Positions 1-14,159 of a stretch of DNA of 14,159 nt are shown in pieces. Each line of letters starts with the position of its first letter. Positions within the stretch are counted from its first letter, which is position 1. The translations under genes were made by a program, and so were the position numbers. The notes under the pieces are model-generated. The model was given only the letters and a program-made list of their open reading frames with translations, ran no database searches and was not told the origin of the DNA. Origin of the DNA: Nitrosospira multiformis ATCC 25196. Lineage in GTDB: Bacteria; Pseudomonadota; Gammaproteobacteria; Burkholderiales; Nitrosomonadaceae. The stretch covers positions 1 through 14,159 of the forward strand of contig NC_007617.1 of assembly GCF_000196355.1 (NCBI RefSeq), in the 5' to 3' direction.

Positions 1-653
1 CATCCTTCGACAGTAATTTTTATATTCGATGGATCAACACCAAATGTCATTGCGAGGCGACGCTTCGCTTCGCTGATGGTAAGAGTCTCATCATCAGCGT
101 TCAATTCGTTGATCTTGCTAGCAGTCAACTGCTTATCTGATACCTGGACCTGCTCTAAAGGTACTCTTGCGATTTCGGTGCCTATTCCTGCACCTCCGCC
201 GACATGAGTTACAGGATTCTCTGCATCAGGCTCATAAAGAGGCAGCCATATCCCTTGTCCCATCGGAAGAGAATAACCTGCTGCACGACGCGCGGCGAAA
301 GCCCGATCAAAACGCTCCCGCAAATCATCACCTTCAATCATATGAACTCGCGCGAGTTCTGAATTATCAGGATCAACAGAAATCACGATTACCTTGTCAA
401 CATCAGAAAGAGTGGTCCACTGTTTGTTACCCTCCGGAGGAAAGGCAATCCAAGTGTCTTGGGTTGTCCGAATGCTAGTGATGTAGCTTTTCTTGCCTTT
501 CGTGATACGCCTGACACTACCCTTTCCAATTTTTGGAATTCGCTCAACGGTCCAGCCATCACCCTCTAGTGTTTCAACGCCAATCTGGAACAGACGTCTC
601 CTTATTAAAGTTCTTTTTGTATTATCGAAAGTATCCTCTGAAGTATTTTCCAT
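1..653 (-). CDS. Hypothetical protein, 3' end cut by the window edge
   Basis: Absent from the ORF track because it runs off the window. The reverse strand reads ATG(653-651) GAA AAT ACT... and gives MENTSEDTFDNTKRTLIRRRLFQIGVETLEGDGWTVERIPKIGKGSVRR...TISEAKRRLAMTFGVDPSNIKITVEG. It is open for 217 codons down to position 1. An in-frame stop lies upstream at 725-723 with no alternative start between, so ATG 653 is the start. No family recognised. Confidence 0.65.
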   Translation of the reverse strand, partial: MENTSEDTFDNTKRTLIRRRLFQIGVETLEGDGWTVERIPKIGKGSVRRITKGKKSYITSIRTTQDTWIAFPPEGNKQWTTLSDVDKVIVISVDPDNSELARVHMIEGDDLRERFDRAFAARRAAGYSLPMGQGIWLPLYEPDAENPVTHVGGGAGIGTEIARVPLEQVQVSDKQLTASKINELNADDETLTISEAKRRLAMTFGVDPSNIKITVEG

Positions 654-732
654 TTTGTTTAAAACAATTAAGTAATAACGTAGTAAATATATTTTATTCC
701 TATAATAAACGCAATAGTTTTTTTAATTTTTT

Positions 733-751
733 AGTATTTACTATAAATACT
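733..751. promoter_or_regulatory. Perfect inverted repeat AGTATTTA-cta-TAAATACT in the AT-rich divergent intergenic region; candidate res subsite or operator
   Basis: The 8-bp arms are exact reverse complements. The site lies between the divergent gene starting at 653 and the resolvase gene starting at 890. The functional assignment is inference only. Confidence 0.3.
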
Positions 752-889
752 GATTACTGGTAGCTAACTTATCGTTAGTGAGGCAAAATGGGTCCCTTTT
801 GCTACACTCAAACACACAATGCAAGGCATTGTTTTTTTTGGCCTCTGCTGTTGCATAAGGGTTGTGCGAAATAAAGGGGGAAGAAATTC

Positions 890-1444
890 ATGAAAATCGG
901 CTATGCGCGGGTTTCCACCGATGACCAGAATCTTGACCTGCAGCTGGACGCTTTAACCAAGGCGGGATGCGAGCAGGTATTTACCGATCACGGCGTCAGC
1001 GGAGCCACCATCGAGCGTGAAGGACTGTCCCAGGCAATTGCCGCAGTCGGGAAAGGCGATGTGCTGGTTGTGTGGAAGCTGGACCGTCTGGGCCGGTCTT
1101 TGAGTTTTCTGATTGAGCTGATAGAGAAGCTGCGAAACGAAGGCGCCGGCTTCGAGAGCCTGTCGGATGGGATCGACACCACGACTGCTGGGGGTAAGCT
1201 GGTATTTCACATCATGGGTGCGTTGGCGGAATTTGAGCGCTCATTGATATCTGAGCGCTCGAAGGCCGGGATGCAGGCAGCCAGGCGGCGAGGAAAGCAT
1301 ATAGGCCGTCCACACAAGTTGAGCCGGGAGCAGATCAGCCATGCAGCTCAGATGATCCAGGAGGGACGGGAAACCGTATCCGGCATGGCCGGGCTGCTGA
1401 GTGTGGATCGAGCTACTTTATACCGTGCATTGAATCGAAAGTAA
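890..1444 (+). CDS. Small serine recombinase (resolvase/invertase family)
   Basis: 184 aa. The N-terminus MKIGYARVSTDDQNLDLQ carries the catalytic-serine YARVST motif. It also has VVWKLDRLGRS and a C-terminal HTH (SVDRATLYRAL). SD GGGGGAAG lies 6 nt upstream of the ATG. Confidence 0.95.
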   Translation: MKIGYARVSTDDQNLDLQLDALTKAGCEQVFTDHGVSGATIEREGLSQAIAAVGKGDVLVVWKLDRLGRSLSFLIELIEKLRNEGAGFESLSDGIDTTTAGGKLVFHIMGALAEFERSLISERSKAGMQAARRRGKHIGRPHKLSREQISHAAQMIQEGRETVSGMAGLLSVDRATLYRALNRK

Positions 1445-1516
1445 GTTATTTGATAACCGTGATCATCGCACCGGATTGCTGCAACGCAAGGCCAGCAGCA
1501 GAGGTGGTCCTCGTCC

Positions 1517-1858
1517 TTAAGCGATAGCCAGCGTCAAGTGCCCGACTGGCTCGGTTGTTGGCTTTACCTTGATTTCGATGTCATACCCCAGGCGATTCAA
1601 GCAGTCCATCAGCTTACGCTCGGACAAACCGGTGAAGTCGCCACGCAGTAGCGCAGATACTTTAGGTTGCGGAATGCCCATCCGACGGCTGGCCTCTTCT
1701 TGAGTCAGACCACGTTTACGCACAGCTCGGGTGATTTCGATCACCAGGGCAGACTTGATCTTGAGTTTTTCGGCATTCGGCAAGCCCAGATCGGCAAAAA
1801 TGTTGCCGGAACTGGTCTCAGCCTCAATGCCTTCAACGATGCGCTTTTGCTTTTTCAT
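1517..1858 (-). CDS. XRE-family HTH antitoxin (HigA-like)
   Basis: The HTH segment is GLTQEEASRRMGIPQPKVSALLRG. The ORF-track start at 1876 is a TTG. The ATG at 1858 (MKKQKRIVEG...) is preceded by AAGGAG 7 nt upstream and is the more likely start. The gene lies downstream of, and overlaps, the toxin gene, which is the reversed HigBA order. Confidence 0.85.
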   Translation of the reverse strand: MKKQKRIVEGIEAETSSGNIFADLGLPNAEKLKIKSALVIEITRAVRKRGLTQEEASRRMGIPQPKVSALLRGDFTGLSERKLMDCLNRLGYDIEIKVKPTTEPVGHLTLAIA

Positions 1859-2219
1859 GTCGTAGCTCCTTTGCAAGTGCCTCGGCCACCTTCAGTCTGG
1901 CGCGGATAATATCTATGTCCTCCTTCGGCGTTGTGATTCCGCTCTTGCTCTTCTTCTGGAAGCAGTGCAGGACGAACACGGCTTCCTCGAATTTCACGGT
2001 ATAGACAGCGCGATAAGTCCCACCCGCATCATCTTCGACTACTTCCAAGACACCAGCGCCACTGAAGCCCTTGAGCACTTTGGCCGCGCCGTGTCGATCA
2101 CCGTGCTGTGCGAAATCCAGGGCGTGACCGAAAAATTTGCGTACCTTGGTCGGAAACACCATCAGATCTTTCTTACTGCTCCCGATCCAGACGAGTGATT
2201 TTTCTTCTTCATCAGTCAT
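1833..2219 (-). CDS. RelE/ParE-superfamily toxin of the phage Gp49-like (HigB-like) type
   Basis: 128 aa. The sequence SLVWIGSSKKDLMVFPTKVRKFFGHALDFAQHG...YRAVYTVKFEEAVFVLHCFQKKSKSGITTPKEDIDIIRARLK is typical of Gp49-like/HigB toxins. It is encoded immediately upstream of an XRE antitoxin. Confidence 0.85.
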   Translation of the reverse strand: MTDEEEKSLVWIGSSKKDLMVFPTKVRKFFGHALDFAQHGDRHGAAKVLKGFSGAGVLEVVEDDAGGTYRAVYTVKFEEAVFVLHCFQKKSKSGITTPKEDIDIIRARLKVAEALAKELRHEKAKAHR

Positions 2220-2224
2220 AGCAT

Positions 2225-2244
2225 ATTATACCAAAATAGGTATA
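2225..2244 (-). promoter_or_regulatory. Candidate TA promoter -10 (TATAAT on the minus strand, 2230-2225) overlapping the palindrome TATACC-aaaata-GGTATA (2227-2244)
   Basis: The minus strand reads TTACTT-N16-TATAAT-atgct-ATG(2219). The 6-bp perfect inverted repeat overlaps the -10, as expected for an autoregulated TA operator. Confidence 0.45.
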
Positions 2245-2306
2245 AAAAGTAATCGTAGTGTAGGGCCTTACAATCGAATGCTTGGTTCATTTGTAATGAA
2301 TTAAAT

Positions 2307-2364
2307 TCTAGCAGCTAGACTATATCTAGCAGCTAGAATAAAATATTTATTTCTAGCTGCTAGA
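2307..2364. repeat. Three copies of the 13-bp palindromic motif TCTAGC(A/T)GCTAGA upstream of parA; candidate centromere/operator
   Basis: Exact copies at 2307-2319, 2325-2337 and 2352-2364; the third has the complementary central base. They sit directly upstream of the parA SD (AGGAG). Confidence 0.65.
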
Positions 2365-2375
2365 TAGGAGTTTTT

Positions 2376-3008
2376 ATGGCCGCAATTGTTGCATTCGTTT
2401 CCCAAAAAGGTGGGGTTGGGAAAAGTACTCTCTCCCGCGCGTTAGCGCGTGAAGTCGCGGTAGGTGGTTTACGGGTAAAAGTTGCAGACTTGGATACTCA
2501 GCAAGGAACATCAGTTGATTGGCATCGTCTACGATTATCCCAAGGGATTGAGCCAATCGTATCAGTAGAGGCATTTGCCACCGCTGCACAAGCGCTTGAA
2601 GCTGCAAAAGGTTTTGATTTACTTATCATTGATGGGCCAGCCCGCACTAGTCAAGCCACACTTGATATTGCCAAGGCGGCCGATTTGATTGTGCAGCCAT
2701 CAGGCCCGTCGCGGGATGATCTAATCCCGGCAGTACGTGAATTCCACGCATTGACGAAAGCTGGCATCCCGAATGAGCGCCTTGCGTTCGCCTTGAATCG
2801 AGTTGGTACTTCCGCTGAGGAAGTGGCGGCACGAGCCTACTTGGAACAAGCTGGATATACGGTCTTAGCCGGTACCTTGCGTGATAGACCAGCTTACCGG
2901 CAAGCACAAAACACAGGTCACAGCATTACCGAAACCAGATTTGCAGGACTGAATGAACGCGCCGATACTCTGATTCAATCGCTTATTGACCGGGTGACTA
3001 ATGGCTGA
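2376..3008 (+). CDS. parA: Partition ATPase ParA (small, type Ib, deviant Walker A)
   Basis: 210 aa. The N-terminus is IVAFVSQKGGVGKSTLSRALA (KGGxGKST deviant Walker A). It also has LLIIDGPAR, and SD AGGAG lies upstream. Confidence 0.95.
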   Translation: MAAIVAFVSQKGGVGKSTLSRALAREVAVGGLRVKVADLDTQQGTSVDWHRLRLSQGIEPIVSVEAFATAAQALEAAKGFDLLIIDGPARTSQATLDIAKAADLIVQPSGPSRDDLIPAVREFHALTKAGIPNERLAFALNRVGTSAEEVAARAYLEQAGYTVLAGTLRDRPAYRQAQNTGHSITETRFAGLNERADTLIQSLIDRVTNG

Positions 3009-3315
3009 TGTATCGAAACTCAAGACGCTAAAAGGACGTCGCTCAAACTTAGGCGACCCCCCATCTTTGGATGAAGCCAGCAATAATCTGAACGCACCAG
3101 AGATTGCACCGGCGCCTTCCCTGTCTTCAAAAGCACTAGGGGGAAAGATTGACGGTCGTACTGCTCGCCGTACGAACAGAACCGTCCAATTTGCTACCCG
3201 TGTTACCCCAGACTGGGATGCGCGTATCAGGGCTATAGCTGACCGCGAAGGGATAAAACTGGTTGAAGTTTTGGAAAGGGCGCTAGATTACTATGAATTA
3301 AAATCTAGCCGATAG
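3001..3315 (+). CDS. Small centromere-binding partition partner, ribbon-helix-helix (ParG-like) C-terminus
   Basis: 104 aa, overlapping the parA stop by 8 nt. The N-terminal half looks disordered. The C-terminal RTVQFATRVTPDWDARIRAIADREGIKLVEVLERALDYY fits a beta-strand plus two helices (RHH). Confidence 0.7.
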   Translation: MADVSKLKTLKGRRSNLGDPPSLDEASNNLNAPEIAPAPSLSSKALGGKIDGRTARRTNRTVQFATRVTPDWDARIRAIADREGIKLVEVLERALDYYELKSSR

Positions 3316-3345
3316 ATAGCAGCTAGATAAAAACTAGCAGCTAGA
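3304..3345. repeat. Further copies of the TAGCAGCTAGA motif immediately downstream of the partition operon
   Basis: TAGCAGCTAGA at 3317-3327 and CTAGCAGCTAGA at 3334-3345. A degenerate copy TCTAGCCGATAGA lies at 3304-3316. Confidence 0.55.
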
Positions 3346-3426
3346 TTGGTAATTTGCATCATCTATGATTGAGAAGAACATTCCACTCAAGCATGAGCAA
3401 TCATATTAATCACTAACTGAGTAACT

Positions 3427-4659
3427 ATGGTATCTGACAAGAACGATGGGCCAAAATCCAAAGTAACTATGGCTTATGCCTTGGAATTGGTAGAGATCGA
3501 GGAGCAATTGGCAGCGCTGGAGCGTACGAATCAACGTCTCCAAGCAATGGCCGAGCGATCCTCGAACAATCCTGATCTTGAGCGCCGCAGAAATGAAATT
3601 ATCGACAAAGCAGCTCCGTTAGAACGACGTAGACAAGCAATCATTGCTGCGGAAGAGGCTGCCGCGGAAGTTTATGTCATGCACGGAGAAACTAGATCTA
3701 CTCCTAACTTATTTAGCGACATTCAGCCTGAATTAGGTTTCTTGGCCGATATTCAGAGCGAGGTCAAAAAAGTCGAAGAGGATAGGAGCAAAAAGCGGGA
3801 ACGATCCAAGCTACTGCCAGCTCGTTACACAAATCAGGATTTCTTTGTTGCAGATATCCTCGGCTATTCGCTCAAGGACGACCACGCCACAATGGAGGCC
3901 CCCGTTTTTTCACTTAAGACTCAGAAAGATCTCACTCCTTGGGAATGGACAAGTAAAGACGGTACAAAGCACATCGAGGTATCGCCTTCGGTCAAATATG
4001 GGCGAGCTACCCAGCATGACAAGGATATTTTGATCTTTGTTACCTCGCAAATGACGGAAGCCCTGAATCGTGAGCGGCCAGACACCCAAAGTCGGGCCGT
4101 GCGTTTTACCGTACATAATTATCTCGTGGCAACCAACAAACCTACAGGGGGGGTGGAATATCAACGACTTGAACGAGCACTGGATAGACTCAAGGGAACA
4201 ACGATTAAAACCGACATCAAGACTGGTAACAAGCGCGTTAAAGAAGCATTTGGCATTCTCGATTCTTGGGCAATCATTGAGCGTTCGTCAAGTGATGAAC
4301 GCATGATTGCTGTTGAAATCACCTTATCCAAGTGGCTTTATAACGCAATCCACGCACACGAAGTGCTAACGATCCATCCTGACTATTTTCGGTTACGCAA
4401 ACCCTTGGAGAGGCGTTTATACGAGTTAGCCAGAAAGCACTGTGGCAGCAAGCAGTCAAGCTGGAAAATCGGACTTGAATTACTACGGGAGAAGTGTGGG
4501 GCGCAGAGTCACATCCGCGCCTTCCGAAATCAGGTACAGGAGATCAGTAATGCTCATACACTGCCTGAATACCACTTGATCTACGAGCGGGAAGCAGATC
4601 AAGTTACTTTCTACGTTAAAAATCAACAGAAGCTCATCTCTTCTTATTTATGTCGCTGA
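3427..4659 (+). CDS. repA: Plasmid replication initiator (RepA/TrfA-like, replication initiator protein A family)
   Basis: 410 aa. The block NQDFFVADILGYSLKDDHATMEAPVFSLKTQKD...RFTVHNYLVATN...WLYNAI...YFRLRKPLERRLYELARKHCG resembles iteron-binding initiators. Iterons follow directly. The start is uncertain: ATG 3427 or ATG 3469, neither with a clear SD. Confidence 0.85.
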   Translation: MVSDKNDGPKSKVTMAYALELVEIEEQLAALERTNQRLQAMAERSSNNPDLERRRNEIIDKAAPLERRRQAIIAAEEAAAEVYVMHGETRSTPNLFSDIQPELGFLADIQSEVKKVEEDRSKKRERSKLLPARYTNQDFFVADILGYSLKDDHATMEAPVFSLKTQKDLTPWEWTSKDGTKHIEVSPSVKYGRATQHDKDILIFVTSQMTEALNRERPDTQSRAVRFTVHNYLVATNKPTGGVEYQRLERALDRLKGTTIKTDIKTGNKRVKEAFGILDSWAIIERSSSDERMIAVEITLSKWLYNAIHAHEVLTIHPDYFRLRKPLERRLYELARKHCGSKQSSWKIGLELLREKCGAQSHIRAFRNQVQEISNAHTLPEYHLIYEREADQVTFYVKNQQKLISSYLCR

Positions 4660-4769
4660 CGCTTAATTCGTTATATCGCTGACATTGTGGATTGACTCGT
4701 TATATCGCTGACACTTTCCTGTGGATTGACTCGTTATATCGCTGACGCGTGACTCGTTATATCGCTGAC
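4645..4769 (+). repeat. oriV iterons: four exact direct copies of TCGTTATATCGCTGAC plus one degenerate copy
   Basis: Exact copies at 4668-4683, 4697-4712, 4731-4746 and 4754-4769. Copies 2 and 3 extend to an identical 27-mer TGTGGATTGACTCGTTATATCGCTGAC (4686-4712 and 4720-4746). A 13/16 copy overlaps the repA stop (4645-4660). An AT-rich tract follows at about 4790-4860. Confidence 0.85.
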
Positions 4770-4883
4770 ACTCTATTCGCAAAGCACTATACTTTACAGT
4801 CACTTAATAGGTATATTTCCTACCGTAACACGCGCGCGTTTTTTAACTTATAAAATCTTTAACACCTCGCCCCCCACTCCAGC

Positions 4884-4892
4884 TGTGGATAA
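4884..4892 (-). promoter_or_regulatory. DnaA box, perfect consensus TTATCCACA
   Basis: The plus strand reads TGTGGATAA at 4884-4892. It lies just beyond the iterons and the AT-rich tract, the canonical position in theta-type plasmid origins. Confidence 0.6.
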
Positions 4893-5516
4893 CACATCTC
4901 CAGCAATTAAATTCCCAATTTAAAGGAATTTATCGACGCCCCCTGAAGGGGGCCAAAAGACCCCCTTCCAGTTTCACCTTTTGTACTTTGCCCGCTTGTG
5001 TTTCTCATCTTTTTCAAAAGATACAAAAGCCATCTTCCGAACCTTAAGCAGAGCATGAGGGCAATCCAGGTGGCTCAGCTGCCATAGTTCCTTAGCAGCT
5101 GACCTGAGCCTTACGGCTCACCCTCATGGGCACCAGGACCCGGACAAATCAGCCCCAGCCTGCAAGCAGGCTGGGAGCTTCAGCCGGGTTTCTGTGGAAA
5201 TTGCCCTTTGTCCATTCAGCTATCCCTTGCACGTCCTCAAAACCTGTCTTCAGGAGGAAGGGGCAAGGTGGAGCTGGGATTCATGCAGAAATACCCTTCA
5301 GATGCGTTCTCAAGGCTGTGGAGCGCATTTCTACCTCAAGCTGAAGGAAATCTATCTCTTTTCCTATTAAACGCTCCAAAGGGCTTTAAAAGCCTTTTTG
5401 TGAAAGACACTTTCCTGGAACAGCTGTTTTCGCCTTCAAGGCAGGGTCAAGGCGGGTGCCAAGCCCCCCGAGAGGGCATGGCCTTGAGGCTGCCTGAAGC
5501 GACACACGCTAAGACC

Positions 5517-5559
5517 AGGGGTGCAGGGAGGGTTTGACCGCAGGTCTCCCTGCACCCCT
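5517..5559. repeat. Perfect 13-bp stem hairpin AGGGGTGCAGGGA-N17-TCCCTGCACCCCT within a GC-rich structured block
   Basis: The arms at 5517-5529 and 5547-5559 are exact reverse complements. Two more GC hairpins follow: GCCCCGtggcgaaCGCGGGGC and TGGGGCagcGCCCCA, up to about 5597. Confidence 0.6.
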
Positions 5560-5660
5560 GCCCCGTGGCGAACGCGGGGCGTGGGGCAGCGCCCCAGGTA
5601 CTTGCGCAGCAATTGCAACAAACCAGAAAATTCCTGCATGAACCCTGTATTTATTTGCAG

Positions 5661-5746
5661 CACCCGATATTCTTTTTGGAATGTTTCGATATTTTTTTGA
5701 AGTAACCGATATTTTTCAGAAGTGCTCGATATATTTCTGTTAAAAA
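5661..5746 (+). repeat. Four direct repeats with 20-22 bp periodicity, core yCGATATtTTTtnGAAG; a second iteron-like array
   Basis: CGATAT cores lie at 5665, 5687, 5707 and 5727 (spacing 22, 20, 20). Repeats 2 and 3 match 15/20. A DnaA-like box TTATCCAGC (7/9) lies at 5756-5764. Confidence 0.55.
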
Positions 5747-5820
5747 GTTGACGGGTTATCCAGCACCCTCCCTTGATCAGGAATTTGGCGCTGACAGGGC
5801 TTGAGCACTCCTGCTGACCG

Positions 5821-6252
5821 TCAACCCTTCATTTTTTCTGCCAGCAGGGCATCGCCCTTGCGCTTCCACTGTGCTTTGCGCTCATCCTCAGGGGCTACCC
5901 TGGAGAGTTCCATGAGCGCGCCCAGGAGCTCTCCCCGATCCAGGAGCGGCATACCGGTTTTTGAATCCACCAGGCCTGCCAGGATCATCAGGCCTGCGGC
6001 GTTATAGAGCTCGCGGTCGCGTGCTTTTCGTGTTGCGAGCTTTTCCGCATTCACGATCCTGGCGGCATTGGCCCGTGCCTTCTGTGCACGTTCCGCTGCT
6101 TTTTCCGCGCGCACGAGTGCCAGAAGTTTGCGTTCATCCTCTGGCGTCCTGTCCGGCTTGTCTGCCAGCAGCAGCAATAGCCGCTGGTGGTCAGTGGGGT
6201 GTTTGAGTCCCCGCAAGTAAGCCAGCCGTCCCTTGAGCCATTCGTCCTGCAT
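5821..6252 (-). CDS. Mobilisation accessory protein (TraD/MobC-like relaxosome component)
   Basis: 143 aa, charged and helical. The segment RKARDRELYNAAGLMILAGLVD resembles the conserved core of TraD-type transfer accessory proteins. A strong SD, GAGGAGG, lies 4 nt upstream. The gene is divergent from mobA, with oriT in between. Confidence 0.6.
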   Translation of the reverse strand: MQDEWLKGRLAYLRGLKHPTDHQRLLLLLADKPDRTPEDERKLLALVRAEKAAERAQKARANAARIVNAEKLATRKARDRELYNAAGLMILAGLVDSKTGMPLLDRGELLGALMELSRVAPEDERKAQWKRKGDALLAEKMKG

Positions 6253-6335
6253 GGGGCCTCCTCATTGTTGAGAACCAGTCGATTGTAGCGGAAAACTTGG
6301 CAGCAGGCACAGACTGAAGTATCCTTGTAATACAC

Positions 6336-6386
6336 AAGGCGCGCTTAGTTGTTTCTTTGGATGGTAAGACCCTCATCCATAGAAAC
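6336..6386 (-). other. oriT (IncQ/RSF1010-like): 13-bp imperfect inverted repeat followed by a TAAGCGCGCC nick-region motif
   Basis: The minus strand reads GTTTCTATGGATG-agggtcttac-CATCCAAAGAAAC-aaC-TAAGCGCGCCTT. As I recall it, RSF1010 oriT is GTTTCTC-gaa-GAGAAAC-cgg-TAAGTGCG^CCCT. The site lies in the 199-bp gap between the divergent mob genes. Confidence 0.65.
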
Positions 6387-6451
6387 ACGCGAACAAGAAA
6401 AGCAAAGATCAGGCCGCTTCGCGGCCAAACAAACAATGGAGAACACCCGGC

Positions 6452-8053
6452 ATGGCAATCGCGCGCCTGAGCATGAAAGTGGGGAAAGCGGGCCGAGCGT
6501 GCCCGCATGCTGCCTACATCGTGCGCGCGGGGCAGCATGCCCGGCATCTTTCCCGGGGCGAGAGGCTCGAAGCGGTTGAAGCGGGCAACCTGCCGGCCTG
6601 GGCGCAACATGATCCGCTGCTTTTCTGGCAGATGGCGGATGCTTATGAGCGCAGCAACGGTACCACCTACCGGGAGATGGAGATTGCCCTGCCAAGGGAA
6701 CTCGATGCCGGGCAGCGGGCAGCGCTGGTGCGGGCATTCGTCGCCCAGGAGATCGGAGGCCGTCACGCGTACCAGTGGGCCATCCACACCCCTATCGCAG
6801 CGGATGGCCAAGCGCAGCCGCACGTCCACCTCATGTTCTCCGAGCGACAGGTGGATGGCATTGAGCGCGACCCGGAACAGTACTTCAAGCGCTACAACGC
6901 CAGGAATCCGGAGAAGGGCGGGGCGCGCAAGGGCTATGGGCCGCGTGCGGGCCAGACCCTGAGCCGGGCCGAGCGCGCAGCGGATCTGAAGGAATTGAGG
7001 GCCCGCTGGCAGGAGATGGCCAATACCCATCTTGAGCAGCTGGGGCACAGCGCGCGCATCGACATGCGCAGCCATGCAGAGCGCGGTACAGGTCTTCTTC
7101 CTGAGAAGAAGCAGCTGCCGAGCCAGTGGCGGGGGGAAGGGCGAGGGAACATCATCGAATTCCGCCAGGCGCGGGCGGCGCTCGTGCAAGCCCATGAGCA
7201 TATGCAGCAGGCGGTACCCGATGCGAAGGCCGAAGTCATCAGCCTGGAAGCTGAGCGGGAGCGACGGATACGGGATCGGGAGGAGCGGAGCCAGGCGGAG
7301 AGGCTGCGCATCGAGCGCATGACGAGCCGCGAGCTCAAAGCCGAGATCGAGCGGCTGCGGCCGCTATCAATCAAAGCCGCGGTTGATCGTCACCCGGAGG
7401 TGATGGCTGCGCGAAAGATCCATGCCTCCCTGTCGTATCAGATGCGGCAGGCGCAGGAAAAGATGCAGCGGGCCACGCTGCAAATGCACGACTGGCGCAG
7501 AGCCCATCCGCTACGGGCCAGGACGCACGACCTGGGACTGATCCCATCCAGTTACCTCATCGAGCGCGAGCAGACCAGGGAAGAAGCCCGGTTGCGGGCT
7601 GAGGATCTTAAGCCCGGGGTCGACGATGCGAGAAGGCGGGCCGAGGATATTGCCGCCGACATCGGACAGCGCATGGAGATCGAACAGAAGCCAGTGCGCG
7701 AGCAGGTGGCCAAGCTTGAGCGCATCTGGCAGCAGAAGGCTAACCAGGAGTTGGAGGTGCTGCGGCAAGCAAAGAAACTAGACTGGGCCATATCAGAGTT
7801 CAAGAGCCACGCCATCAGCCGTGCACTGAAAGTTCCCAGTTACAGCGACACCGGCACACAGTGGAAAGCGCTGCCGGAGAGCGCACGTGAAGCGATAGAC
7901 CGGTTCAATACCCTTCCAAAGGACGAACGGGCGCGGGAGCTGGAAAGGATGCGGGAGTATTTCAGGCAGCAGGGGCCGAAAGCTGTGGAGGGACTGGTGC
8001 AGGAAATGAGTCAGGGGAAAAGCAGGAATAGGGGTCAGGGATGGGAGCTTTGA
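6452..8053 (+). CDS. mobA: MobA/MobL-family (MOBQ) relaxase
   Basis: 533 aa. The N-terminus MAIARLSMKVGKAGRACPHAAYIVRAG carries the catalytic-Tyr context. The histidine triad region is HTPIAADGQAQPHVHLMFSE. The C-terminal half is a long charged coiled coil, and no primase-like segment is evident. Confidence 0.9.
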   Translation: MAIARLSMKVGKAGRACPHAAYIVRAGQHARHLSRGERLEAVEAGNLPAWAQHDPLLFWQMADAYERSNGTTYREMEIALPRELDAGQRAALVRAFVAQEIGGRHAYQWAIHTPIAADGQAQPHVHLMFSERQVDGIERDPEQYFKRYNARNPEKGGARKGYGPRAGQTLSRAERAADLKELRARWQEMANTHLEQLGHSARIDMRSHAERGTGLLPEKKQLPSQWRGEGRGNIIEFRQARAALVQAHEHMQQAVPDAKAEVISLEAERERRIRDREERSQAERLRIERMTSRELKAEIERLRPLSIKAAVDRHPEVMAARKIHASLSYQMRQAQEKMQRATLQMHDWRRAHPLRARTHDLGLIPSSYLIEREQTREEARLRAEDLKPGVDDARRRAEDIAADIGQRMEIEQKPVREQVAKLERIWQQKANQELEVLRQAKKLDWAISEFKSHAISRALKVPSYSDTGTQWKALPESAREAIDRFNTLPKDERARELERMREYFRQQGPKAVEGLVQEMSQGKSRNRGQGWEL

Positions 8054-8116
8054 GCATGATAAAATCATGGAAGTTGCTGAACGACTACAGCGCGTTAAAC
8101 TGGGGGAGATTCAGTA

Positions 8117-9049
8117 TCAGTTAAGAGAAATGCTGTAAGAACCAGCAACATGACTAATAAAATCGAGCTCTACATCTGTGCGGGTATAAATCCCACCATC
8201 TCCACATGGCTTACTAGCACCACGAAACGCCCTAGAGGTGAGGGCAGCAACTTTCCTTTGAGGGCCTAGGTCTATATAGGCGGGACCGCCACTATCCCCA
8301 TTACAACTATCGAAACCAAGGCCTCCAGCAAGGATTTCAACATCAGATTCAAATCCATACTTGATTTCGAGAGCGTCTAAATCATCATTAGGATCTTTTC
8401 TAATGCCAATTATGTCTACTTGCACATGCCTTTTTTCCCCAAATCCTCTCGTGCTATAGACATCTGAGTTTCCAAAACCTACTAGTGAAAGTTGTTGAGA
8501 GGATTTCAATTCATTGGTAGTAGCTAAAGGACAGGGGGGAGTTGTGGCAGGTTTTTTTAGGATTATTACTGATATATCATGAAGCCCTGTTTGAAGATAC
8601 TTTGGATGGGCAACACTAATTTTTGCAGGGATTACTTCTGCATCTTTTAAATGGTTCATGCTTTCGCATGACAAAGCAACAACTGAAGCCGTAACTCTTG
8701 GTGGTTGATGACAATGGGCAGCTGTAAGAACGATTTGGGGATGTACGAGTACCCCGGTACAGTTCCATTGAACTATTCCGTTTGGCAGTGACTCTCCTAT
8801 AAGACAACAATCTTTATATTCTCCTTTGCTTACAGGTGTACCACCGATAATACGTGCAGTTGCCAGAGCCAGCTGAATAGCATGATTATTTCTAAGGGCT
8901 CGATCTAAGGGGGCTTCGTTCATATAGGAAGTCAAAAGGCTTCCTAGAGCATTAAATTTATCAGCCAATCTTCTGTGAGCTTCCATTGGATCAAAAGACT
9001 CCTCTTTTCCAGTACAACCTGCACTGGTGCAGCCAAAACGCTGGTTCAT
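8117..9049 (-). CDS. Trypsin-fold (S1 family) serine protease zymogen, no signal peptide
   Basis: Catalytic triad contexts are LTAAHC, HDISVIIL and GDSGGP. An Asp occupies the S1-pocket position (GFDSCNGDSGGP). A canonical activation junction, ATAR-IIGGTPV, follows a hydrophilic pro-region of about 65 aa. The ORF-track start at 9061 is a TTG. The ATG at 9049 has GGAG 7 nt upstream and is preferred. Confidence 0.9.
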   Translation of the reverse strand: MNQRFGCTSAGCTGKEESFDPMEAHRRLADKFNALGSLLTSYMNEAPLDRALRNNHAIQLALATARIIGGTPVSKGEYKDCCLIGESLPNGIVQWNCTGVLVHPQIVLTAAHCHQPPRVTASVVALSCESMNHLKDAEVIPAKISVAHPKYLQTGLHDISVIILKKPATTPPCPLATTNELKSSQQLSLVGFGNSDVYSTRGFGEKRHVQVDIIGIRKDPNDDLDALEIKYGFESDVEILAGGLGFDSCNGDSGGPAYIDLGPQRKVAALTSRAFRGASKPCGDGGIYTRTDVELDFISHVAGSYSISLN

Positions 9050-9064
9050 CTTATTCTCCAATTG

Positions 9065-9358
9065 TTATTGTCTTCCAGGGGATGGTGCTAATAAGCCCAC
9101 TAGACCGCCGACAGCTGCTGTTGATAGGGGAAGCAGAAGCTTTATGAATTCTTCTGAAGCAAACATTGCGAGAGGAAAAATGAGGATTATGGCAGCGCTC
9201 AATGCGCTTACGACTATCCTATATATCCATTTATCGGTTTCTAGAGGGGATTTAAGCTCCTCAATCTTCTCAAGAATTGGCTTTTTTTCTTGAGCGTCAA
9301 TAGGAGATTCCTCTACGAGTGCTCGGATTCTATCAAGTTGTTGAATATCCCTGTTCAT
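9065..9358 (-). CDS. Small membrane protein: hydrophilic helical N-terminus plus two C-terminal TM helices
   Basis: 97 aa. The N-terminal 43 residues are charged (MNRDIQQLDRIRALVEESPIDAQEKKPILEKIEELK). Two hydrophobic spans follow, WIYRIVVSALSAAIILIFPLAMFA and FIKLLLPLSTAAVGGLVGLLAP. GGGAG lies upstream. The stop is 15 nt before the protease ATG. No family recognised. Confidence 0.7.
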   Translation of the reverse strand: MNRDIQQLDRIRALVEESPIDAQEKKPILEKIEELKSPLETDKWIYRIVVSALSAAIILIFPLAMFASEEFIKLLLPLSTAAVGGLVGLLAPSPGRQ

Positions 9359-9504
9359 TTGGCATTAACTCCCGTTAATTCAATGGTTTTATTTTTATTT
9401 ATAGATGAAAGAATAGGCAAAGTAAGAAAAATGCATGTCCGACAGCAAAATTTTCCATTTTAGAGCGGCACTGATTCTGATTCGGGTCGCTACTATGGGA
9501 CACA

Positions 9505-10182
9505 TCACTTTAATTCCTTCGAAACACAAACCATATACTTGTCTATCCGCACAAGTTTGTCTTCAATATCTTTCGTTGACTCAAAGCAATTTCTTAAAAG
9601 AGTCTGCTTAGTTAGAAGCTTAGCTCTCATAATGCGGCCATGCAATTTATGCTCCTGCAGCTTTAATAGAAAGTTGTTTTGGAGATCGTCATTTTTGAGC
9701 ATAGATGCACATATACTCCCCAAAGAAGGGGGTTGTAAGCTTACCAAGTACTCAAGCTGTTTCTTGGCCGATGCAAGCTCGGTTTGATTACTGGTTTGAT
9801 TACTGCGCTGGTTCCTATTCCTTTCTACTTCAGCTATCTGGTCGAGTACCTTAGCGCGGGTTTTGCTTATTAGCTTAGCGAGCTCCTCATCTGGAGCTCC
9901 ACCCGTTCTGTTCCGATCTAGCGCTACAACGCAGGCATCAATAAGGGTTCCCGAGGCGTCATCGTCAAGAAAATTAGCATGAATTTGAGCTACCACTTCC
10001 GGGGAGAGGGTGGAATCTCCATTCTGAATTAAGCCAAGTGAGTCACCTGCAACCGGCCCAGACTGAGCTGTCGTAACTGAAGATTGGAACTCAAGCAATA
10101 CTAGATTAGTTACAACTTCATCGAGCTTTTTGCCAGCAGTTGAAATAGCTTTCTTTTTTTTCTCCTTTGATGTGCTCCCCAT
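9505..10182 (-). CDS. Hypothetical protein (225 aa from the native ATG), predicted soluble and helical
   Basis: A long ORF in low-GC DNA. The ORF-track start (10194) lies inside the IS inverted repeat. The first host-derived ATG is at 10182 (MGSTSKEKKKK...). The gene contains a 12-bp tandem duplication at 9781-9804 encoding NQTSNQT. No family recognised. Confidence 0.6.
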   Translation of the reverse strand: MGSTSKEKKKKAISTAGKKLDEVVTNLVLLEFQSSVTTAQSGPVAGDSLGLIQNGDSTLSPEVVAQIHANFLDDDASGTLIDACVVALDRNRTGGAPDEELAKLISKTRAKVLDQIAEVERNRNQRSNQTSNQTELASAKKQLEYLVSLQPPSLGSICASMLKNDDLQNNFLLKLQEHKLHGRIMRAKLLTKQTLLRNCFESTKDIEDKLVRIDKYMVCVSKELK

Positions 10183-10235
10183 AAAACGTGCCATCTGGAA
10201 TCTAGTAAAGTTCGTTTTTCGAGAGGAGAACGGAC

Positions 10236-10499
10236 GTGAAGAAGCGATTTACGGATGAACAAATTATTGGATTTCTGAAGCAGGCAGATGGAGGCATTCC
10301 GGTCAGGGAATTGTGCCGCCAGCATGGTTTTTCCGATGCGTCGTTTTACACCTGGCGTGCCAGGTTTGGTGGGATGACAGTATCGGATGCCAGGCGGTTG
10401 CGAGATCTTGAAGCAGAGAATGCTCAGCTCAAGAAGCTTTTAGCCGAGTCGCTTCTTGATGCTCAAGCCTTGAAGGTTGCTTTGGGCCGAAAGCATTAA
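10236..10499 (+). CDS. IS3-family transposase OrfA (HTH/leucine zipper)
   Basis: GTG start. MKKRFTDEQIIGFLKQADGGIPVRELCRQHGFSDASFYTWRARFGGM...LEAENAQLKKLLAE is the characteristic IS3/IS407-group OrfA sequence. Confidence 0.9.
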   Translation: MKKRFTDEQIIGFLKQADGGIPVRELCRQHGFSDASFYTWRARFGGMTVSDARRLRDLEAENAQLKKLLAESLLDAQALKVALGRKH

Positions 10500-10525
10500 C
10501 TCCACAGGCCAGGCGTGAGGCAGTA

Positions 10526-11356
10526 ATGGCGATGCTTGAGCAGACGAACGTTTCCGAACGCCGTGCCTGCCTGCTTGTGGATATATCACGTACGGTATTG
10601 CACTACATGTCCAAGGTGCGGCTGGAGAATGAGCAACTGCAAGGTCGAATGGTTGAGTTGGCCTCTGAACGCCGTCGTTTTGGTTATCGACGCATTCATG
10701 CCCTGCTGCGGCGTGAGGGTGTTGAAGCCAATCACAAACGCATCTTTCGCCTTTACCAGGCTGCCGGGTTGGCAGTAAAGCGCCGACGCAGGCGAGGGGG
10801 CGTAGCAGTTGAACGTGAGCAATTGGCATTGCCAAGCCAGCCCAACGAGGTATGGTCAATGGATTTCATCTGTGATGCACTGGCGAATGGCAGACGCATC
10901 AAGGTATTGACCATCGTTGATGACTTCACCAAGGAATCCATTGATCTGGTAGCTGAACATGGCATTTCGGGACAACATGTCGTGCGCGTATTGGAGCAAG
11001 CTTCACAGTTTCGTGGGTTGCCCTTGGCCATTCGCACCGATCAGGGACCGGAGTTCACCAGCAAGGCACTGGATCAGTGGGCTTATAAGCATGGTGTCCA
11101 GCTCAAATTGATTGAGGCGGGCAAGCCGACGCAAAATGCATATATTGAGAGCTTCAACGGTCGGTTTCGGGATGAGTGCCTGAACGATCACTGGTTTACC
11201 AGCCTGGCTGAGGCACGGATTCGGATATCAGCCTGGCGGCGCGACTACAACGAGCATCGACCGCACAGTGCACTAAATTACCTAACCCCGGCAGAATTTG
11301 CAGCCAACTGCCGCAGGCAAGAAGAAATAAACGGCTGTGAAAGAAATGGAAGCTAA
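10526..11356 (+). CDS. IS3-family transposase OrfB (DDE catalytic domain), probably expressed as an OrfAB fusion by -1 frameshift
   Basis: The frame is -1 relative to orfA and is open from 10460, so the frameshift window is 10460-10499. DDE contexts are VWSMDF, IRTDQGPEFTS and YIESFNGRFRDECLN. Confidence 0.9.
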   Translation: MAMLEQTNVSERRACLLVDISRTVLHYMSKVRLENEQLQGRMVELASERRRFGYRRIHALLRREGVEANHKRIFRLYQAAGLAVKRRRRRGGVAVEREQLALPSQPNEVWSMDFICDALANGRRIKVLTIVDDFTKESIDLVAEHGISGQHVVRVLEQASQFRGLPLAIRTDQGPEFTSKALDQWAYKHGVQLKLIEAGKPTQNAYIESFNGRFRDECLNDHWFTSLAEARIRISAWRRDYNEHRPHSALNYLTPAEFAANCRRQEEINGCERNGS

Positions 11357-11393
11357 TTTATAACTGAACTTTGCTAGAACGCCCCTGGCACTA

Positions 11394-12149
11394 CTACCGG
11401 GGGCACATCACCTTAGCTTGATCATCGGTTTCTGGTAGCTCGACCGCCTCTTGCAGTTGCTGTGATGCGTCCTTAACTGCAACACGTGCTTCATCTAGTT
11501 TCTTTGGATCCGTGCCTTTTGTGGAGGCGCTGCTACCTAGAGCAGCAAGTTTTTGCCCAAATGCTCCAGCAGCAATTTCAGAGGCCAACATGCTAGCCAT
11601 TGTCTTGTCGAAACGCGCTAGCATGAGCGTATAGCTCGTGTCACTAATGGCACCGTTTTGGAAGGCTTCGCAAGCGCGATACATTTTGTCCCGCAGCAAT
11701 TGCACCGTCGATAGTCGCGCTCCCAATTGGGCGATGCTTGATGCGTAGGACGATCCAACTGATCCCGATCCGCTAATGTTCTTTATTTCCGAGGCCTTTA
11801 TGTCAACCTTTGCAGCAGCAGTGAAGGCAGCTGATATTGCTTGAGCAACGTCAGGACTAGGTTCGGCACAAATGATACGGGTAGGGTGATTTTTAATTAC
11901 ATGATCGGTGTTGGCTGAAGAGGTATCACTTGAACCATCACTTTTACCGCTAGATCTCCTAATGCCGACATCTGCTTTTGTGTTAATGATGGCACGTTGT
12001 TTAGCATCTGTGATTAGAGATGGATTACCGCCCGGCGTATTGTTAGAATCGAGGGCTTCCGTATAGTTAATGCGTCGTTCTTGTCGATCCAAAAATGCGC
12101 ATCCTGTAGACAAAAGCGGAACTAAGCAGATAATTAGACCTATTTTCAT
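11394..12149 (-). CDS. Putative lipoprotein of unknown function
   Basis: 251 aa. The N-terminus MKIGLIICLVPLLSTGC looks like a signal peptide with a lipobox-like Cys17. An S/G/T-rich linker and an alanine-rich helical C-terminal half follow. SD GAGG lies 8 nt upstream. The TAG stop is doubled (TAGTAG) and abuts the IS right end. Confidence 0.7.
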   Translation of the reverse strand: MKIGLIICLVPLLSTGCAFLDRQERRINYTEALDSNNTPGGNPSLITDAKQRAIINTKADVGIRRSSGKSDGSSDTSSANTDHVIKNHPTRIICAEPSPDVAQAISAAFTAAAKVDIKASEIKNISGSGSVGSSYASSIAQLGARLSTVQLLRDKMYRACEAFQNGAISDTSYTLMLARFDKTMASMLASEIAAGAFGQKLAALGSSASTKGTDPKKLDEARVAVKDASQQLQEAVELPETDDQAKVMCPR

Positions 12150-12559
12150 TATTAGAACCTCAATTATAGAGAGAGGGATTAATCAGTCTTCTTGGAATTA
12201 GCAACAGTGCAGATTGTGAATTCCGATCCATCATCGACCCGCATCACTTTTTTCGTAAAAATTCTTTCTTGCGACCCCCATTAAAATTAAATTAGCAATA
12301 TCCTTCTGAAGGATTCAATTCTTATATTTCCTTTTAAATTCATACCCTGATAGTCTTATTTATAGGTTTTTTGGCTTTATTTTGCTTGTTATTTATCGTT
12401 TCGTTTATAGTAACGGGCATTGCAAAAAGTCTTCCCTTCACTACACAAATCTAGAGCATGTGCAAAGCAGGGATATAAGACTACCGTTTGTAAAGACCGC
12501 GCCCTACCTCCTGCTGGTGCTGGTTGTGTCAGCCCCGCTTTCGAACTCTGCTACTCAAA

Positions 12560-12597
12560 TTGACGAAAGTGTCTATAGTGGTATACGCTAATAAGCG
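12560..12597 (+). promoter_or_regulatory. Candidate promoter/operator of the xre-immA operon: TTGACG-N17-ATACGCTAATAAGCG
   Basis: The -35-like TTGACG is at 12560-12565. The 15-mer ATACGCTAATAAGCG (12583-12597) recurs exactly at 13717-13731. It lies immediately upstream of the SD GGAGGA. Confidence 0.5.
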
Positions 12598-12614
12598 GAG
12601 GAGCGGAAATTATT

Positions 12615-12950
12615 ATGACTACGATACGACAAGACCATGTTACTTTTGGTAGCTACATTGCGGAAGCGCGCAAGAAGCTATCGATGAGCCAGAAGGAGCT
12701 GGCGGCCCGTATCCTACGGGAAGAAGATGGACAGCCCATCTCTCCCCAATATCTCAATGATATCGAACGCGACCGCCGGAGCCCCACATCCGATCATTTA
12801 ATCCAGCAGTTCGCAAAGGTTCTCCAGATAGATGCGGATTACCTGCACTACCTCTCTGGTAAATTACCCGAGGAAATCAGGCAGCGGAATCTTTCCCAAG
12901 ATGATGTGAAAGCCGCTTTCATGGCCTTCCGTAAACCCAATAAAAAATAA
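12615..12950 (+). CDS. XRE-family HTH transcriptional regulator
   Basis: 111 aa. FGSYIAEARKKLSMSQKELAARI...PISPQYLNDIERDRRSPTSDHLIQQFAKVL matches the Cro/CI-type HTH_3 pattern. Confidence 0.85.
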   Translation: MTTIRQDHVTFGSYIAEARKKLSMSQKELAARILREEDGQPISPQYLNDIERDRRSPTSDHLIQQFAKVLQIDADYLHYLSGKLPEEIRQRNLSQDDVKAAFMAFRKPNKK

Positions 12951-12957
12951 TAATTTC

Positions 12958-13674
12958 ATGGTTGCTTACATACGCGACCTGACTGGTCGTTTTCAGCAGC
13001 GTCCCCACTATAAACCCGAGGAACTGGATCGCGAATGCGAATCCATCATCACGGGCTTTCTCAAAAGTCTCTACGGTAATGTTCGCTATCCGGTCGAAAC
13101 AGAAGATCTGAAAAAATTGATCGAGCGGGATGCGGATGATCTTGATGTATACGCCGACCTTTCAATTTACGGTGCGGAAGTGGAGGGAGTTACAGAGTTC
13201 TATCCTGGCCGTAAACCAATAGTCCGGATCGCGGCAGAGCTGACTGAGGATGAGCGCCGGGAGAACCGATTGCGAACAACCTTGACCCATGAATATGGCC
13301 ATGTCCACTTTCATGCTTACCTCTGGGAAATGGAGCCTCTGCAGGCGGACTTGCTTCGGCGGCAACCTAATCGCGATAAGATCATCTGCAAGCGCGACAC
13401 GATGATCGACGCGACCCATACGGACTGGATGGAGTGGCAGGCCGGTTATGTTTGCGGAGCGATTCTGATGCCTAAAACGGCCGTAGTAGGGCTATGCCGT
13501 TCGTTTGTCGAACAGCGTGGTTTATATAGTGCGGTTTCAACCCGAACGTATCACGGTCAGGACCTGATTGCTAGCGTTATCAGTTCTTTCCAGGTATCGG
13601 AAGACGCAGCCCGCGTACGCCTTATAAAGCTCGGTCTATTGACTGAGTCTGTTTCTACGCCATCCCTGTTTTAA
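12958..13674 (+). CDS. ImmA/IrrE-family zinc metallopeptidase (COG2856-type)
   Basis: 238 aa with the HEXXH motif in TLTHEYGHVHFH. It starts 7 nt after the xre stop, the classical XRE-COG2856 gene pair. Confidence 0.85.
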   Translation: MVAYIRDLTGRFQQRPHYKPEELDRECESIITGFLKSLYGNVRYPVETEDLKKLIERDADDLDVYADLSIYGAEVEGVTEFYPGRKPIVRIAAELTEDERRENRLRTTLTHEYGHVHFHAYLWEMEPLQADLLRRQPNRDKIICKRDTMIDATHTDWMEWQAGYVCGAILMPKTAVVGLCRSFVEQRGLYSAVSTRTYHGQDLIASVISSFQVSEDAARVRLIKLGLLTESVSTPSLF

Positions 13675-13693
13675 TTAATTGCTCGCAAATCTA

Positions 13694-13734
13694 TTGCAGA
13701 GCTTACACGTACTGTGATACGCTAATAAGCGTAT
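13694..13734 (+). promoter_or_regulatory. Second copy of the promoter/operator: TTGCAG-N17-ATACGCTAATAAGCGTAT
   Basis: The architecture matches 12560-12597. Here the motif is a perfect palindrome, ATACGCT-aata-AGCGTAT (13717-13734). It lies 65 nt upstream of the DUF3892-like ATG. Confidence 0.5.
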
Positions 13735-13798
13735 CGGCGGATTAGCGGTTTTGCGATGGTCGCACCTCTACCCCGGTCATTCATATAGGAGATATAAA

Positions 13799-14086
13799 AT
13801 GGCAACTAAGCATGAAGTGAAGTGCATTAATAAAACTGACCGTCCTAATCCTCACGAACGTATTCGAGCGATTGGGGGAGTGAATGCAGATGGGACAAAT
13901 TGGAAATTAAGCCAGCAAGATGCAATTCGGGGGATTGAGGATGGAAAATGGAGCTTTTACGTATCAGTACGTGGCCAGATCGTGAATGTAATTATTGGCA
14001 TTAGCCGATATGGTAATAAGTATCTAAAAACAGAAGCTGATGGAGAGCAGCCGAACAATCTTCTTTCCCTGTATGAGTGTGCTTAA
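13799..14086 (+). CDS. Small conserved protein resembling the DUF3892 family
   Basis: 95 aa from the ATG at 13799, with AGGAGA 7 nt upstream; the ORF-track start at 13751 is a TTG. From memory, the pattern VKCINKTDRPNPHERIRAIGG...WKLSQQDAIRGIEDGKWSFYV...YLKTEADGEQPNNLLSLYEC matches DUF3892. This was not checked by any search. Confidence 0.7.
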   Translation: MATKHEVKCINKTDRPNPHERIRAIGGVNADGTNWKLSQQDAIRGIEDGKWSFYVSVRGQIVNVIIGISRYGNKYLKTEADGEQPNNLLSLYECA

Positions 14087-14159
14087 CCCAACTCAATAAC
14101 GTGCTACCGCTGCTGATCGGGTAGCGGTAGCTGCTCTAGAACCTCTACCAAAAACGTCT

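Follow-up and report, generated by a model that had tools for sequence, protein, structure and literature searches.

The last 1.6 kb of a 14,159-nucleotide stretch of DNA from Nitrosospira multiformis ATCC 25196 (contig NC_007617.1, positions 1 to 14,159; hereafter the window, by which the whole stretch is meant) hold three co-directional genes, which encode an XRE-type helix-turn-helix (HTH) repressor, a zinc metallopeptidase of the M78 family and a small protein of the DUF3892 family. This locus is probably a switch of the CapH/CapP type (the type of IrrE/DdrO and ImmA/ImmR), laid out as a co-directional cassette in which one promoter with its operator (P1/O1) stands before the xre-m78 pair and a second promoter with its operator (P2/O2) before a cargo gene. 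This reading is built on the identities of the genes, the duplication, conservation and position of the operator, the variability of the cargo and the similarity of the protease fold, and from these we infer the binding of the repressor, its cleavage and the signal.

An earlier note on this DNA had drawn attention to a 15-mer shared by the regions in front of the xre and DUF3892 genes. The sequence ATACGCTAATAAGCG is present in exact copies at 12583-12597 and 13717-13731, and a -35-like hexamer ends 17 bp before each of them, TTGACG at 12560-12565 (P1) and TTGCAG at 13694-13699 (P2), both read directly in the sequence of the forward strand, on which all elements of the cassette lie. The gene calls (HTH_3, PF06114 and PF13031) agree with one copy preceding the repressor-protease pair and the other preceding the DUF3892 gene. 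The downstream copy, which had been described as a 7-4-7 palindrome, extends to a perfect 8-4-8 palindrome, GATACGCTAATAAGCGTATC, with arms and spacer GATACGCT-AATA-AGCGTATC (operator O2, 13716-13735). The upstream copy belongs to operator O1 (12582-12607), composed of TATACGCTAATAAGCGGAGG and an extra AGCGGA half-site 8 bp further on. O1 is only half palindromic because its right arm, AGCGGAGG, overlaps and doubles as the ribosome-binding site of xre (Shine-Dalgarno GGAGG, 12597-12601). The left arm of each operator contains TACGCT, the presumed -10 element of P1 at 12584-12589 and of P2 at 13718-13723, and the spacer between the -35 element and TACGCT is 18 bp in both promoters. Further GCG half-site-like repeats with an 8-bp period follow both operators, at 12602-12607 and 13736-13750; the latter stretch is an extended leader, GGCGGATTAGCGGTT, conserved as gGCgGAT.aGCGG over P2 regions with different cargos. 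When up to three mismatches are allowed, the 15-mer has four matches in the window, one of them being the palindrome read in reverse, where 0.29 are expected, and none of 200 shuffles reaches four. A single exact pair of 15-mers in 14 kb is by itself just mildly unlikely, and it is the comparative evidence that is decisive.

This evidence comes from 80 loci with homologues of the protease (50-82% identity), found by a scan of one genome per species and spread over Alpha-, Beta-, Gamma- and Deltaproteobacteria, Nitrospira, Planctomycetes, Verrucomicrobia, one cyanobacterium and others. In all 80 of them an xre homologue lies directly upstream of the protease gene. A position weight matrix (PWM) built from 34 clear instances finds the motif TACGCT-N4-AGCG(G/T)AT in two positions, 15-45 bp ahead of the start of xre (63 of the 77 loci in which this region is present) and 30-67 bp beyond the stop codon of the protease gene (68/79 loci). 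Both sites occur together in 53/76 loci, and 131 matches at the two expected places stand against 4 elsewhere in 606 kb. Sites aligned on the motif show a -35 element as well, which reads cTTGAC upstream of xre and TTGCA upstream of the cargo. At a distance of 16-18 bp ahead of TACGCT, TTG is found at 42 of 63 upstream operators and TTG(C/A) at 53 of 68 downstream operators, about 70% of cases overall, compared with 4% at random positions in either case. From this distance it follows that the left arm itself would be the -10 hexamer and that the right arm would cover the predicted start site. Four of the 80 loci have a divergent cargo gene (L008, L052, L056 and L076), coding for DUF3892 in L008 and for a GIY-YIG-like protein in L056 and L076. 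They have no site after the protease gene, and their second site is in the divergent intergenic region, 127-153 bp upstream of xre; the second site relocates with the divergent cargo, and therefore the operator follows the cargo. The comparative data indicate that the motif is a true operator, the predicted repressor site on two promoters, and they support the view of the earlier note that this is a regulatory switch, as palindrome and -35 element precede both xre and cargo in most of the 80 loci. O2 is not generally the better palindrome (both operators have a mean of 5.48 of 8 pairs, Wilcoxon p = 0.98); this is so in the window and in some close relatives only.

The repressor gene xre (12615-12950, 111 aa) encodes a CapH-like HTH protein which matches Pfam HTH_3 (6.6e-12) and the PADLOC models capH (1e-5) and HTH_VI (9.5e-10). 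Its most conserved stretch, ISPQYLNDIExDRRSP, is at least 90% identical among homologues. We take this stretch to be the DNA-reading part of the protein, which fits an operator that is unchanged across phyla. Near the C-terminus there is a conserved AFR motif (F105-R106). CapH is cut at a comparable hydrophobic-Arg site, F82|R83, and by this analogy the AFR motif is a candidate cleavage site, as a lead only. The protease gene m78 (12958-13674, 238 aa; PF06114) encodes an ImmA/IrrE/CapP-like zinc metallopeptidase with HEYGH at residues 111-115. Residues H111, E112, H115, H119, E159, C27 and C144 are invariant among 44 homologues, which is consistent with an intact HExxH zinc site in which E159 would be the third (Glu) ligand, like E129 of CapP. 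PADLOC matches the protease to capP (3e-7) and calls the pair capH/capP. When the AlphaFold2 model of the protease (predicted local distance difference test, pLDDT, 87.6) was compared with the PDB by Foldseek, the best match was Thauera CapP (7T5T; E 9e-6, template modelling score 0.51, 215 columns, 17% identity in the structural alignment), followed by IrrE/PprI structures (3DTI, 8SLN, 3DTE and 8SLM; E 1e-3 to 3e-3), all further matches having E > 0.2. The kinship with ImmR/ImmA- and IrrE-like pairs which had been proposed from the sequence is in accordance with these fold and profile matches. In the model a low-confidence insertion precedes a strand (141-145) that contains C144, with D147 shortly behind; the two residues resemble the cysteine-switch loop of CapP, C114-x-x-D117, so that C144 is a candidate switch residue. 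A search of the XRE sequence against the PDB returned nothing meaningful, and an NCBIfam search gave no match. We rejected a phage lysogeny switch as a reading of the pair, because in 50,697 phage records the protease family has only partial matches of 25-33% identity, in 21 records.

According to the mechanism we propose, a dimer of XRE would bind the palindrome TACGCT-N4-AGCG(T/G)A, probably as part of a higher oligomer, since the extra half-sites after both operators suggest that more than one dimer is bound. CapH, too, needs oligomerisation for DNA binding (Lau et al. 2022). With the left arm serving as the -10 hexamer and the right arm lying over the transcription start in both promoters, bound XRE would keep RNA polymerase off the cargo promoter and, in autoregulation, off that of its own operon. 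A stress signal would then lead the M78 peptidase to cleave XRE and both promoters would fire, with xre-m78 and DUF3892 both expressed as the outcome. In characterised relatives the signal is single-stranded DNA (ssDNA) from DNA damage or phage infection.

Behind the second operator the loci carry different genes. DUF2188 is the first gene in about 21 of the 80 loci and holds this position ahead of genes for Multiubiquitin proteins (Multi_ubiq) and a ThiF/DUF6791 E1-like protein, which form two cargo families of 17 and 13 open reading frames (ORFs). In about 21 loci the cargo is a protein without a Pfam match, some 390 aa long, starting about 110 bp after the protease stop (L038, L045, L047, L057-L067, L071, L072, L075, L077, L079 and L080), and this protein is the commonest cargo in Rhodobacterales and relatives. 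A protein of 91-107 aa and no assigned family occurs in four loci (L001, L043, L044 and L051), and other cargos are a patatin (L039), an HNH nuclease (L031) and a ThsB-type TIR protein (L042). DUF3892 is the cargo in 7 loci, one of them divergent. The suggestion that DUF3892 is the output of the switch stands insofar as an operator precedes it, here and in those loci, with the restriction that it is one of many cargos. In other loci DUF3892 is succeeded by genes that code for a patatin (L053), a TIR-like and a caspase-like protein (L019, in which a hairpin lies between DUF3892 and these genes), HEPN_Swt1 (L161) or DUF2188 (L054). The genes that follow O2 are of kinds typical of defence or stress, and they differ even among close relatives while P2 and a leader of about 35 bp are conserved.

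The DUF3892 gene of the window (13799-14086, 95 aa) matches PF13031 with 77.1 bits (cut-off 22.3) over profile positions 2-70 of 71. Its true start is the ATG at 13799 and not the TTG at 13751, as the homologues are 95-96 aa long and a ribosome-binding site, AGGAG at 13787-13791, lies 7 nt upstream of this ATG. There are at least 1740 close homologues, 68-99% identical; homologues number in the thousands, with identities of 70-90% across phyla. The AlphaFold2 model (pLDDT 86) is a small beta-rich domain with one helix. A sequence search against the PDB gave nothing meaningful. The dsRBD/HPF-like fold proposed for this family in the Lipocone preprint was not confirmed by fold searches of the PDB and BFVD, and homology to DUF2188 was rejected (hhalign probability 1%). 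An anti-defence role, one of those considered in the earlier note, has little support from sequence records, since homologues are nearly absent from sequenced phages (one record). Since the three-gene unit is also found by itself, we regard DUF3892, speculatively, as a small effector of stress or defence that acts on its own; its target, again speculatively, is most likely a conserved one, either nucleic acid or ribosomal, and its effect a slowing of growth. A GC-rich hairpin of 9-11 bp without a U-tract (GCTACCGCT ... AGCGGTAGC, 14103-14131) follows the gene and is possibly the end of the transcript; in L081, the closest metagenomic relative, a resembling hairpin, ACCGCTGC...GCAGCGGT, lies just after the DUF3892 stop.

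The earlier note had proposed a survey of how often DUF3892 occurs together with XRE-M78 pairs, and the answer is mixed. Among the seven nearest relatives of the window protein four lie in an HTH-M78-DUF3892 unit, whereas in 80 metagenome DUF3892 loci (L081-L160), of which about 50 have enough upstream sequence to judge, the module is present in two, L081 and L095. The four units are situated between housekeeping genes, in a Tn7-like element, beside a relaxase and upstream of a resolvase gene, respectively. Two further relatives retain parts of the cassette: in L166 (contig of P0006, 2300-2790) the P2 -35 element, the operator and DUF3892 are kept and an IS21 element (rve and IstB) replaces xre-m78, and in L165 (contig of P0003, 2370-2500) only a decayed operator, TACGTTAATAAGAATA, is left before DUF3892. 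These orphan cargo promoters should be constitutive unless a repressor is supplied in trans. The seventh relative shows no trace of the module. A palindrome, AGCGA-tgg-TCGCT, which is similar to the one in the P2 leader of the window (TGCGA-tgg-TCGCA), was noticed just after the operator remnant of L165. A different XRE-M78 family (21% identical) lies divergently beside two DUF3892 genes on a Sulfitobacter MOBQ plasmid. Judged by these sequences the association with DUF3892 is recurrent, with at least two regulator families, and not obligatory. A Pfam scan of the immediate neighbours of DUF3892 found Peptidase_M78 in two members, the protease of L081 not being recognised by it; the other neighbours are varied (type I restriction-modification subunits, HTH_3, ParA, SocA/Panacea, AbiEi), and the restriction-modification, ParA, SocA/Panacea and AbiEi genes fit defence-island or mobile-element contexts. 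Around the stand-alone genes (L082-L160) HsdS makes up 7 and HsdM 5 of the 132 immediate neighbours.

Several of our results weigh against a CapH/CapP-type switch with DUF3892 as its cargo. The matrix scores of the two operators (26.1 for O1 and 30.9 for O2) are partly circular, since some of these loci also served to train the PWM; the positional concentration of the motif is not. The two promoters claimed earlier are borne out by -35 elements kept across loci, but a strict sigma-70 scan calls a promoter at neither site. It missed both because it demands 4/6 matches in the -10 element, and TACGCT, which agrees with the consensus at T1, A2 and T6 only, is a weak -10 by Escherichia coli rules. 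The PF06114 score of the protease, 22.3 bits, is barely above the cut-off of 22, and searches of its sequence against the PDB, also with a profile, gave no meaningful match. Moreover, the protease is without a C-terminal GAF domain, as its model has no beta-strand after residue 145 and helices only after residue 157. In CapP and IrrE ssDNA is held in a groove between the peptidase and GAF domains, GAF being one wall of it, and therefore ssDNA as the activating signal cannot simply be carried over from them. Binding, cleavage and transcription starts in this XRE-M78 family are themselves deduced from sequence. As to the cargo, most DUF3892 genes lie outside XRE-M78 cassettes, and comparison of the DUF3892 model with the PDB and BFVD gave no match better than E 0.09, which leaves its role guesswork. 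Finally, a terminator scan found none after the protease stop, its one result being a weak terminator-like hairpin that falls within the 3' end of m78, and read-through from P1 may also feed DUF3892. Such read-through would add to the output of P2; both promoters being under the same repressor, the logic of the switch would be unchanged.

The switch could be part of something wider, although we put this forward tentatively. P1/O1-xre-m78-P2/O2 with its leader of about 35 bp may be a horizontally mobile, plug-in inducible promoter cassette behind which defence and stress cargos are swapped across phyla, possibly by recombination in the P2 leader, with a GAF-less protease that senses a signal other than ssDNA and with DUF3892 alone as a complete one-protein effector. 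If true, no protease-gated system of defence or dormancy smaller than this three-gene island would be known, and the island would offer a direct route to the function of DUF3892. It is rather doubtful, in our view, that DUF3892 is instead an accessory, sensor or adaptor protein, encoded first behind the promoter, which either works together with separate effectors or exerts feedback on the switch, its partner lying elsewhere or having been lost here. Such a role would suit the typical effectors which follow DUF3892 in L053, L019, L161 and L054, the equivalent first position of DUF2188 ahead of the Multi_ubiq/E1 genes, and the proposal of Burroughs, Aravind and colleagues (preprint), who see in DUF3892 a domain that senses RNA or ribosomes and is fused to Min-Wnt effectors. 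However, the HTH-M78-DUF3892 unit is found by itself with housekeeping genes on either side, a hairpin closes it both in the window and in L081, the hairpin of L019 splits DUF3892 from the genes after it, and most DUF3892 genes stand alone in varied contexts.

Two other explanations dispense with the switch and are much less probable. Xre-COG2856 pairs have reportedly been predicted to be toxin-antitoxin-like modules, and the pair studied here is carried on a small mobilisable plasmid, so one may ask if it is a self-contained addiction pair with DUF3892 as an unrelated neighbour and the second motif as a side effect of the insertion of the cassette. The presence of the second operator, together with a -35 element of its own, before the cargo in 68/79 loci, the movement of this operator with divergent cargo and the fold and profile matches of the protease to the regulators CapP and IrrE make this very unlikely. 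We give still less credence to the two copies being recombination or cassette-boundary sites which flank xre-m78 and serve the exchange of cargo, not operators. They are direct repeats bracketing a 1.1-kb unit, and the cargo behind the second copy varies among close relatives where P2 and its leader of about 35 bp are constant, yet at both places the palindrome keeps a constant distance of 16-18 bp from a -35 element, which is the geometry of an operator and promoter, and no recombinase travels with the module, the serine recombinase of the window being 11 kb distant. A boundary function would be compatible with operator function and does not exclude it.

Pairs resembling CapH/CapP beside DUF3892 operons have been described (Lau et al. 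2022, citing Burroughs & Aravind 2020), and the partners listed by Lau et al. (2022) for such regulators are DUF2188, DUF3892 and the ubiquitin-like 6a/6e systems. The kind of switch and its link with DUF3892 are therefore already published and not new. The locus shares with CapH/CapP (Lau et al. 2022; Calloji et al. 2026, preprint) a small XRE-type HTH repressor with an HExxH M78 peptidase, for which CapP is the best match by PDB fold and PADLOC profile alike, a repressor site (predicted here) in the target promoter, this same repertoire of cargos and a candidate cysteine-switch residue. It differs in having its genes co-directional with the cargo, for which a second, internal promoter and operator are needed; all examples of Lau et al. 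(2022) are divergent, with the regulator pair upstream of the regulated operon, while the window and most of its relatives are co-directional and divergent layouts are limited to the 4/80 loci mentioned above. Further differences are an operator that overlaps the -10 element, the CapH site being upstream of the -35 element, a protease of 238 aa instead of the 278-288 aa of CapP and IrrE, without the C-terminal GAF domain, and very low sequence similarity.

Deinococcus IrrE(PprI)/DdrO is the second-best fold match of the protease (3DTI, 8SLN) and likewise has a palindrome at its own and target promoters, DdrO being inactivated by C-terminal cleavage. It governs a chromosomal regulon of many DNA-repair genes, and irrE and ddrO are not adjacent. 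Unlike the window protease IrrE has a GAF domain, and the window has a single local cargo gene on a mobile cassette. With ImmR/ImmA of ICEBs1 and phage phi105 the locus has in common an operon of repressor followed by protease, a protease free of GAF and a location on a mobile element. ImmR/ImmA, however, control the excision and transfer genes of their own element, whereas the window protease family is essentially absent from sequenced phages and its cargo is of the defence or stress type. The Sulfitobacter system introduced above (Lau et al. 2022, Fig. 6F; plasmid NZ_CP081128.1 of Sulfitobacter sp. W002) also combines an HTH protein and an ImmA/IrrE peptidase with DUF3892 on a small MOBQ plasmid, but its layout is divergent, its DUF3892 genes are two paralogues, its regulators are of the other XRE-M78 family and its intergenic region lacks the TACGCT motif and apparently has palindromes of its own. 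Taken against these systems, the locus has the gene pairing, the catalytic motif, the fold and the promoter palindrome, and it lacks the CapP-type GAF domain and the divergent layout. What is new is the operator consensus overlapping the -10 element, the co-directional two-promoter cassette with many alternative cargos and the short GAF-less protease. With one 95-aa DUF3892 gene as its entire cargo and a switch that can be predicted, the locus lends itself as a minimal system, and it could be used to learn the function of DUF3892 and the signal sensed by a GAF-less relative of CapP.

The P2 leader of the window also contains a short hairpin or palindrome, TGCGA-tgg-TCGCA, at 13752-13764. In one sub-clade a stem of at least 4 bp is found at the same position in 12 of 17 leaders, compared with a shuffle mean of 1.5, and besides the window these are L001, L002, L004, L007, L032, L041, L081, L161, L166, L167 and L170. 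The hairpin lies 34-50 nt after the start of O2 whatever the cargo, and it has 11 distinct arm sequences, both arms changing together. It is not common to all P2 leaders (25/70, with 22 in shuffles) and is real in this sub-clade only. An Rfam search of the leaders gave no match, and the folding of the P2 leader RNA is not unusual (z-score -0.5).

The window as a whole looks like a small mobilisable plasmid, to judge from its genes. These include a serine recombinase (890-1444), ParA (2376-3008), a replication initiator of the RPA family (RepA, 3427-4659), nearest to RepA proteins of betaproteobacterial plasmids (58-67% identity), a MobA/MobL relaxase (6452-8053) and an IS3-type transposase (10526-11356). 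A search of PLSDB plasmids for near-identical DNA found none. An ORF of 251 aa with no significant family match (11394-12149, reverse strand) is placed after the IS3 transposase and ahead of the promoter region of xre, and AT-rich DNA of about 410 bp (12150-12560) lies between this ORF and P1. Upstream of the transposase, on the reverse strand, a trypsin-like serine protease (8117-9061), which matches the LmuA model of PADLOC (E 1.7e-8), adjoins a 229-aa protein with no family match (9505-10194), and together they may form a second defence-type locus on the same plasmid.

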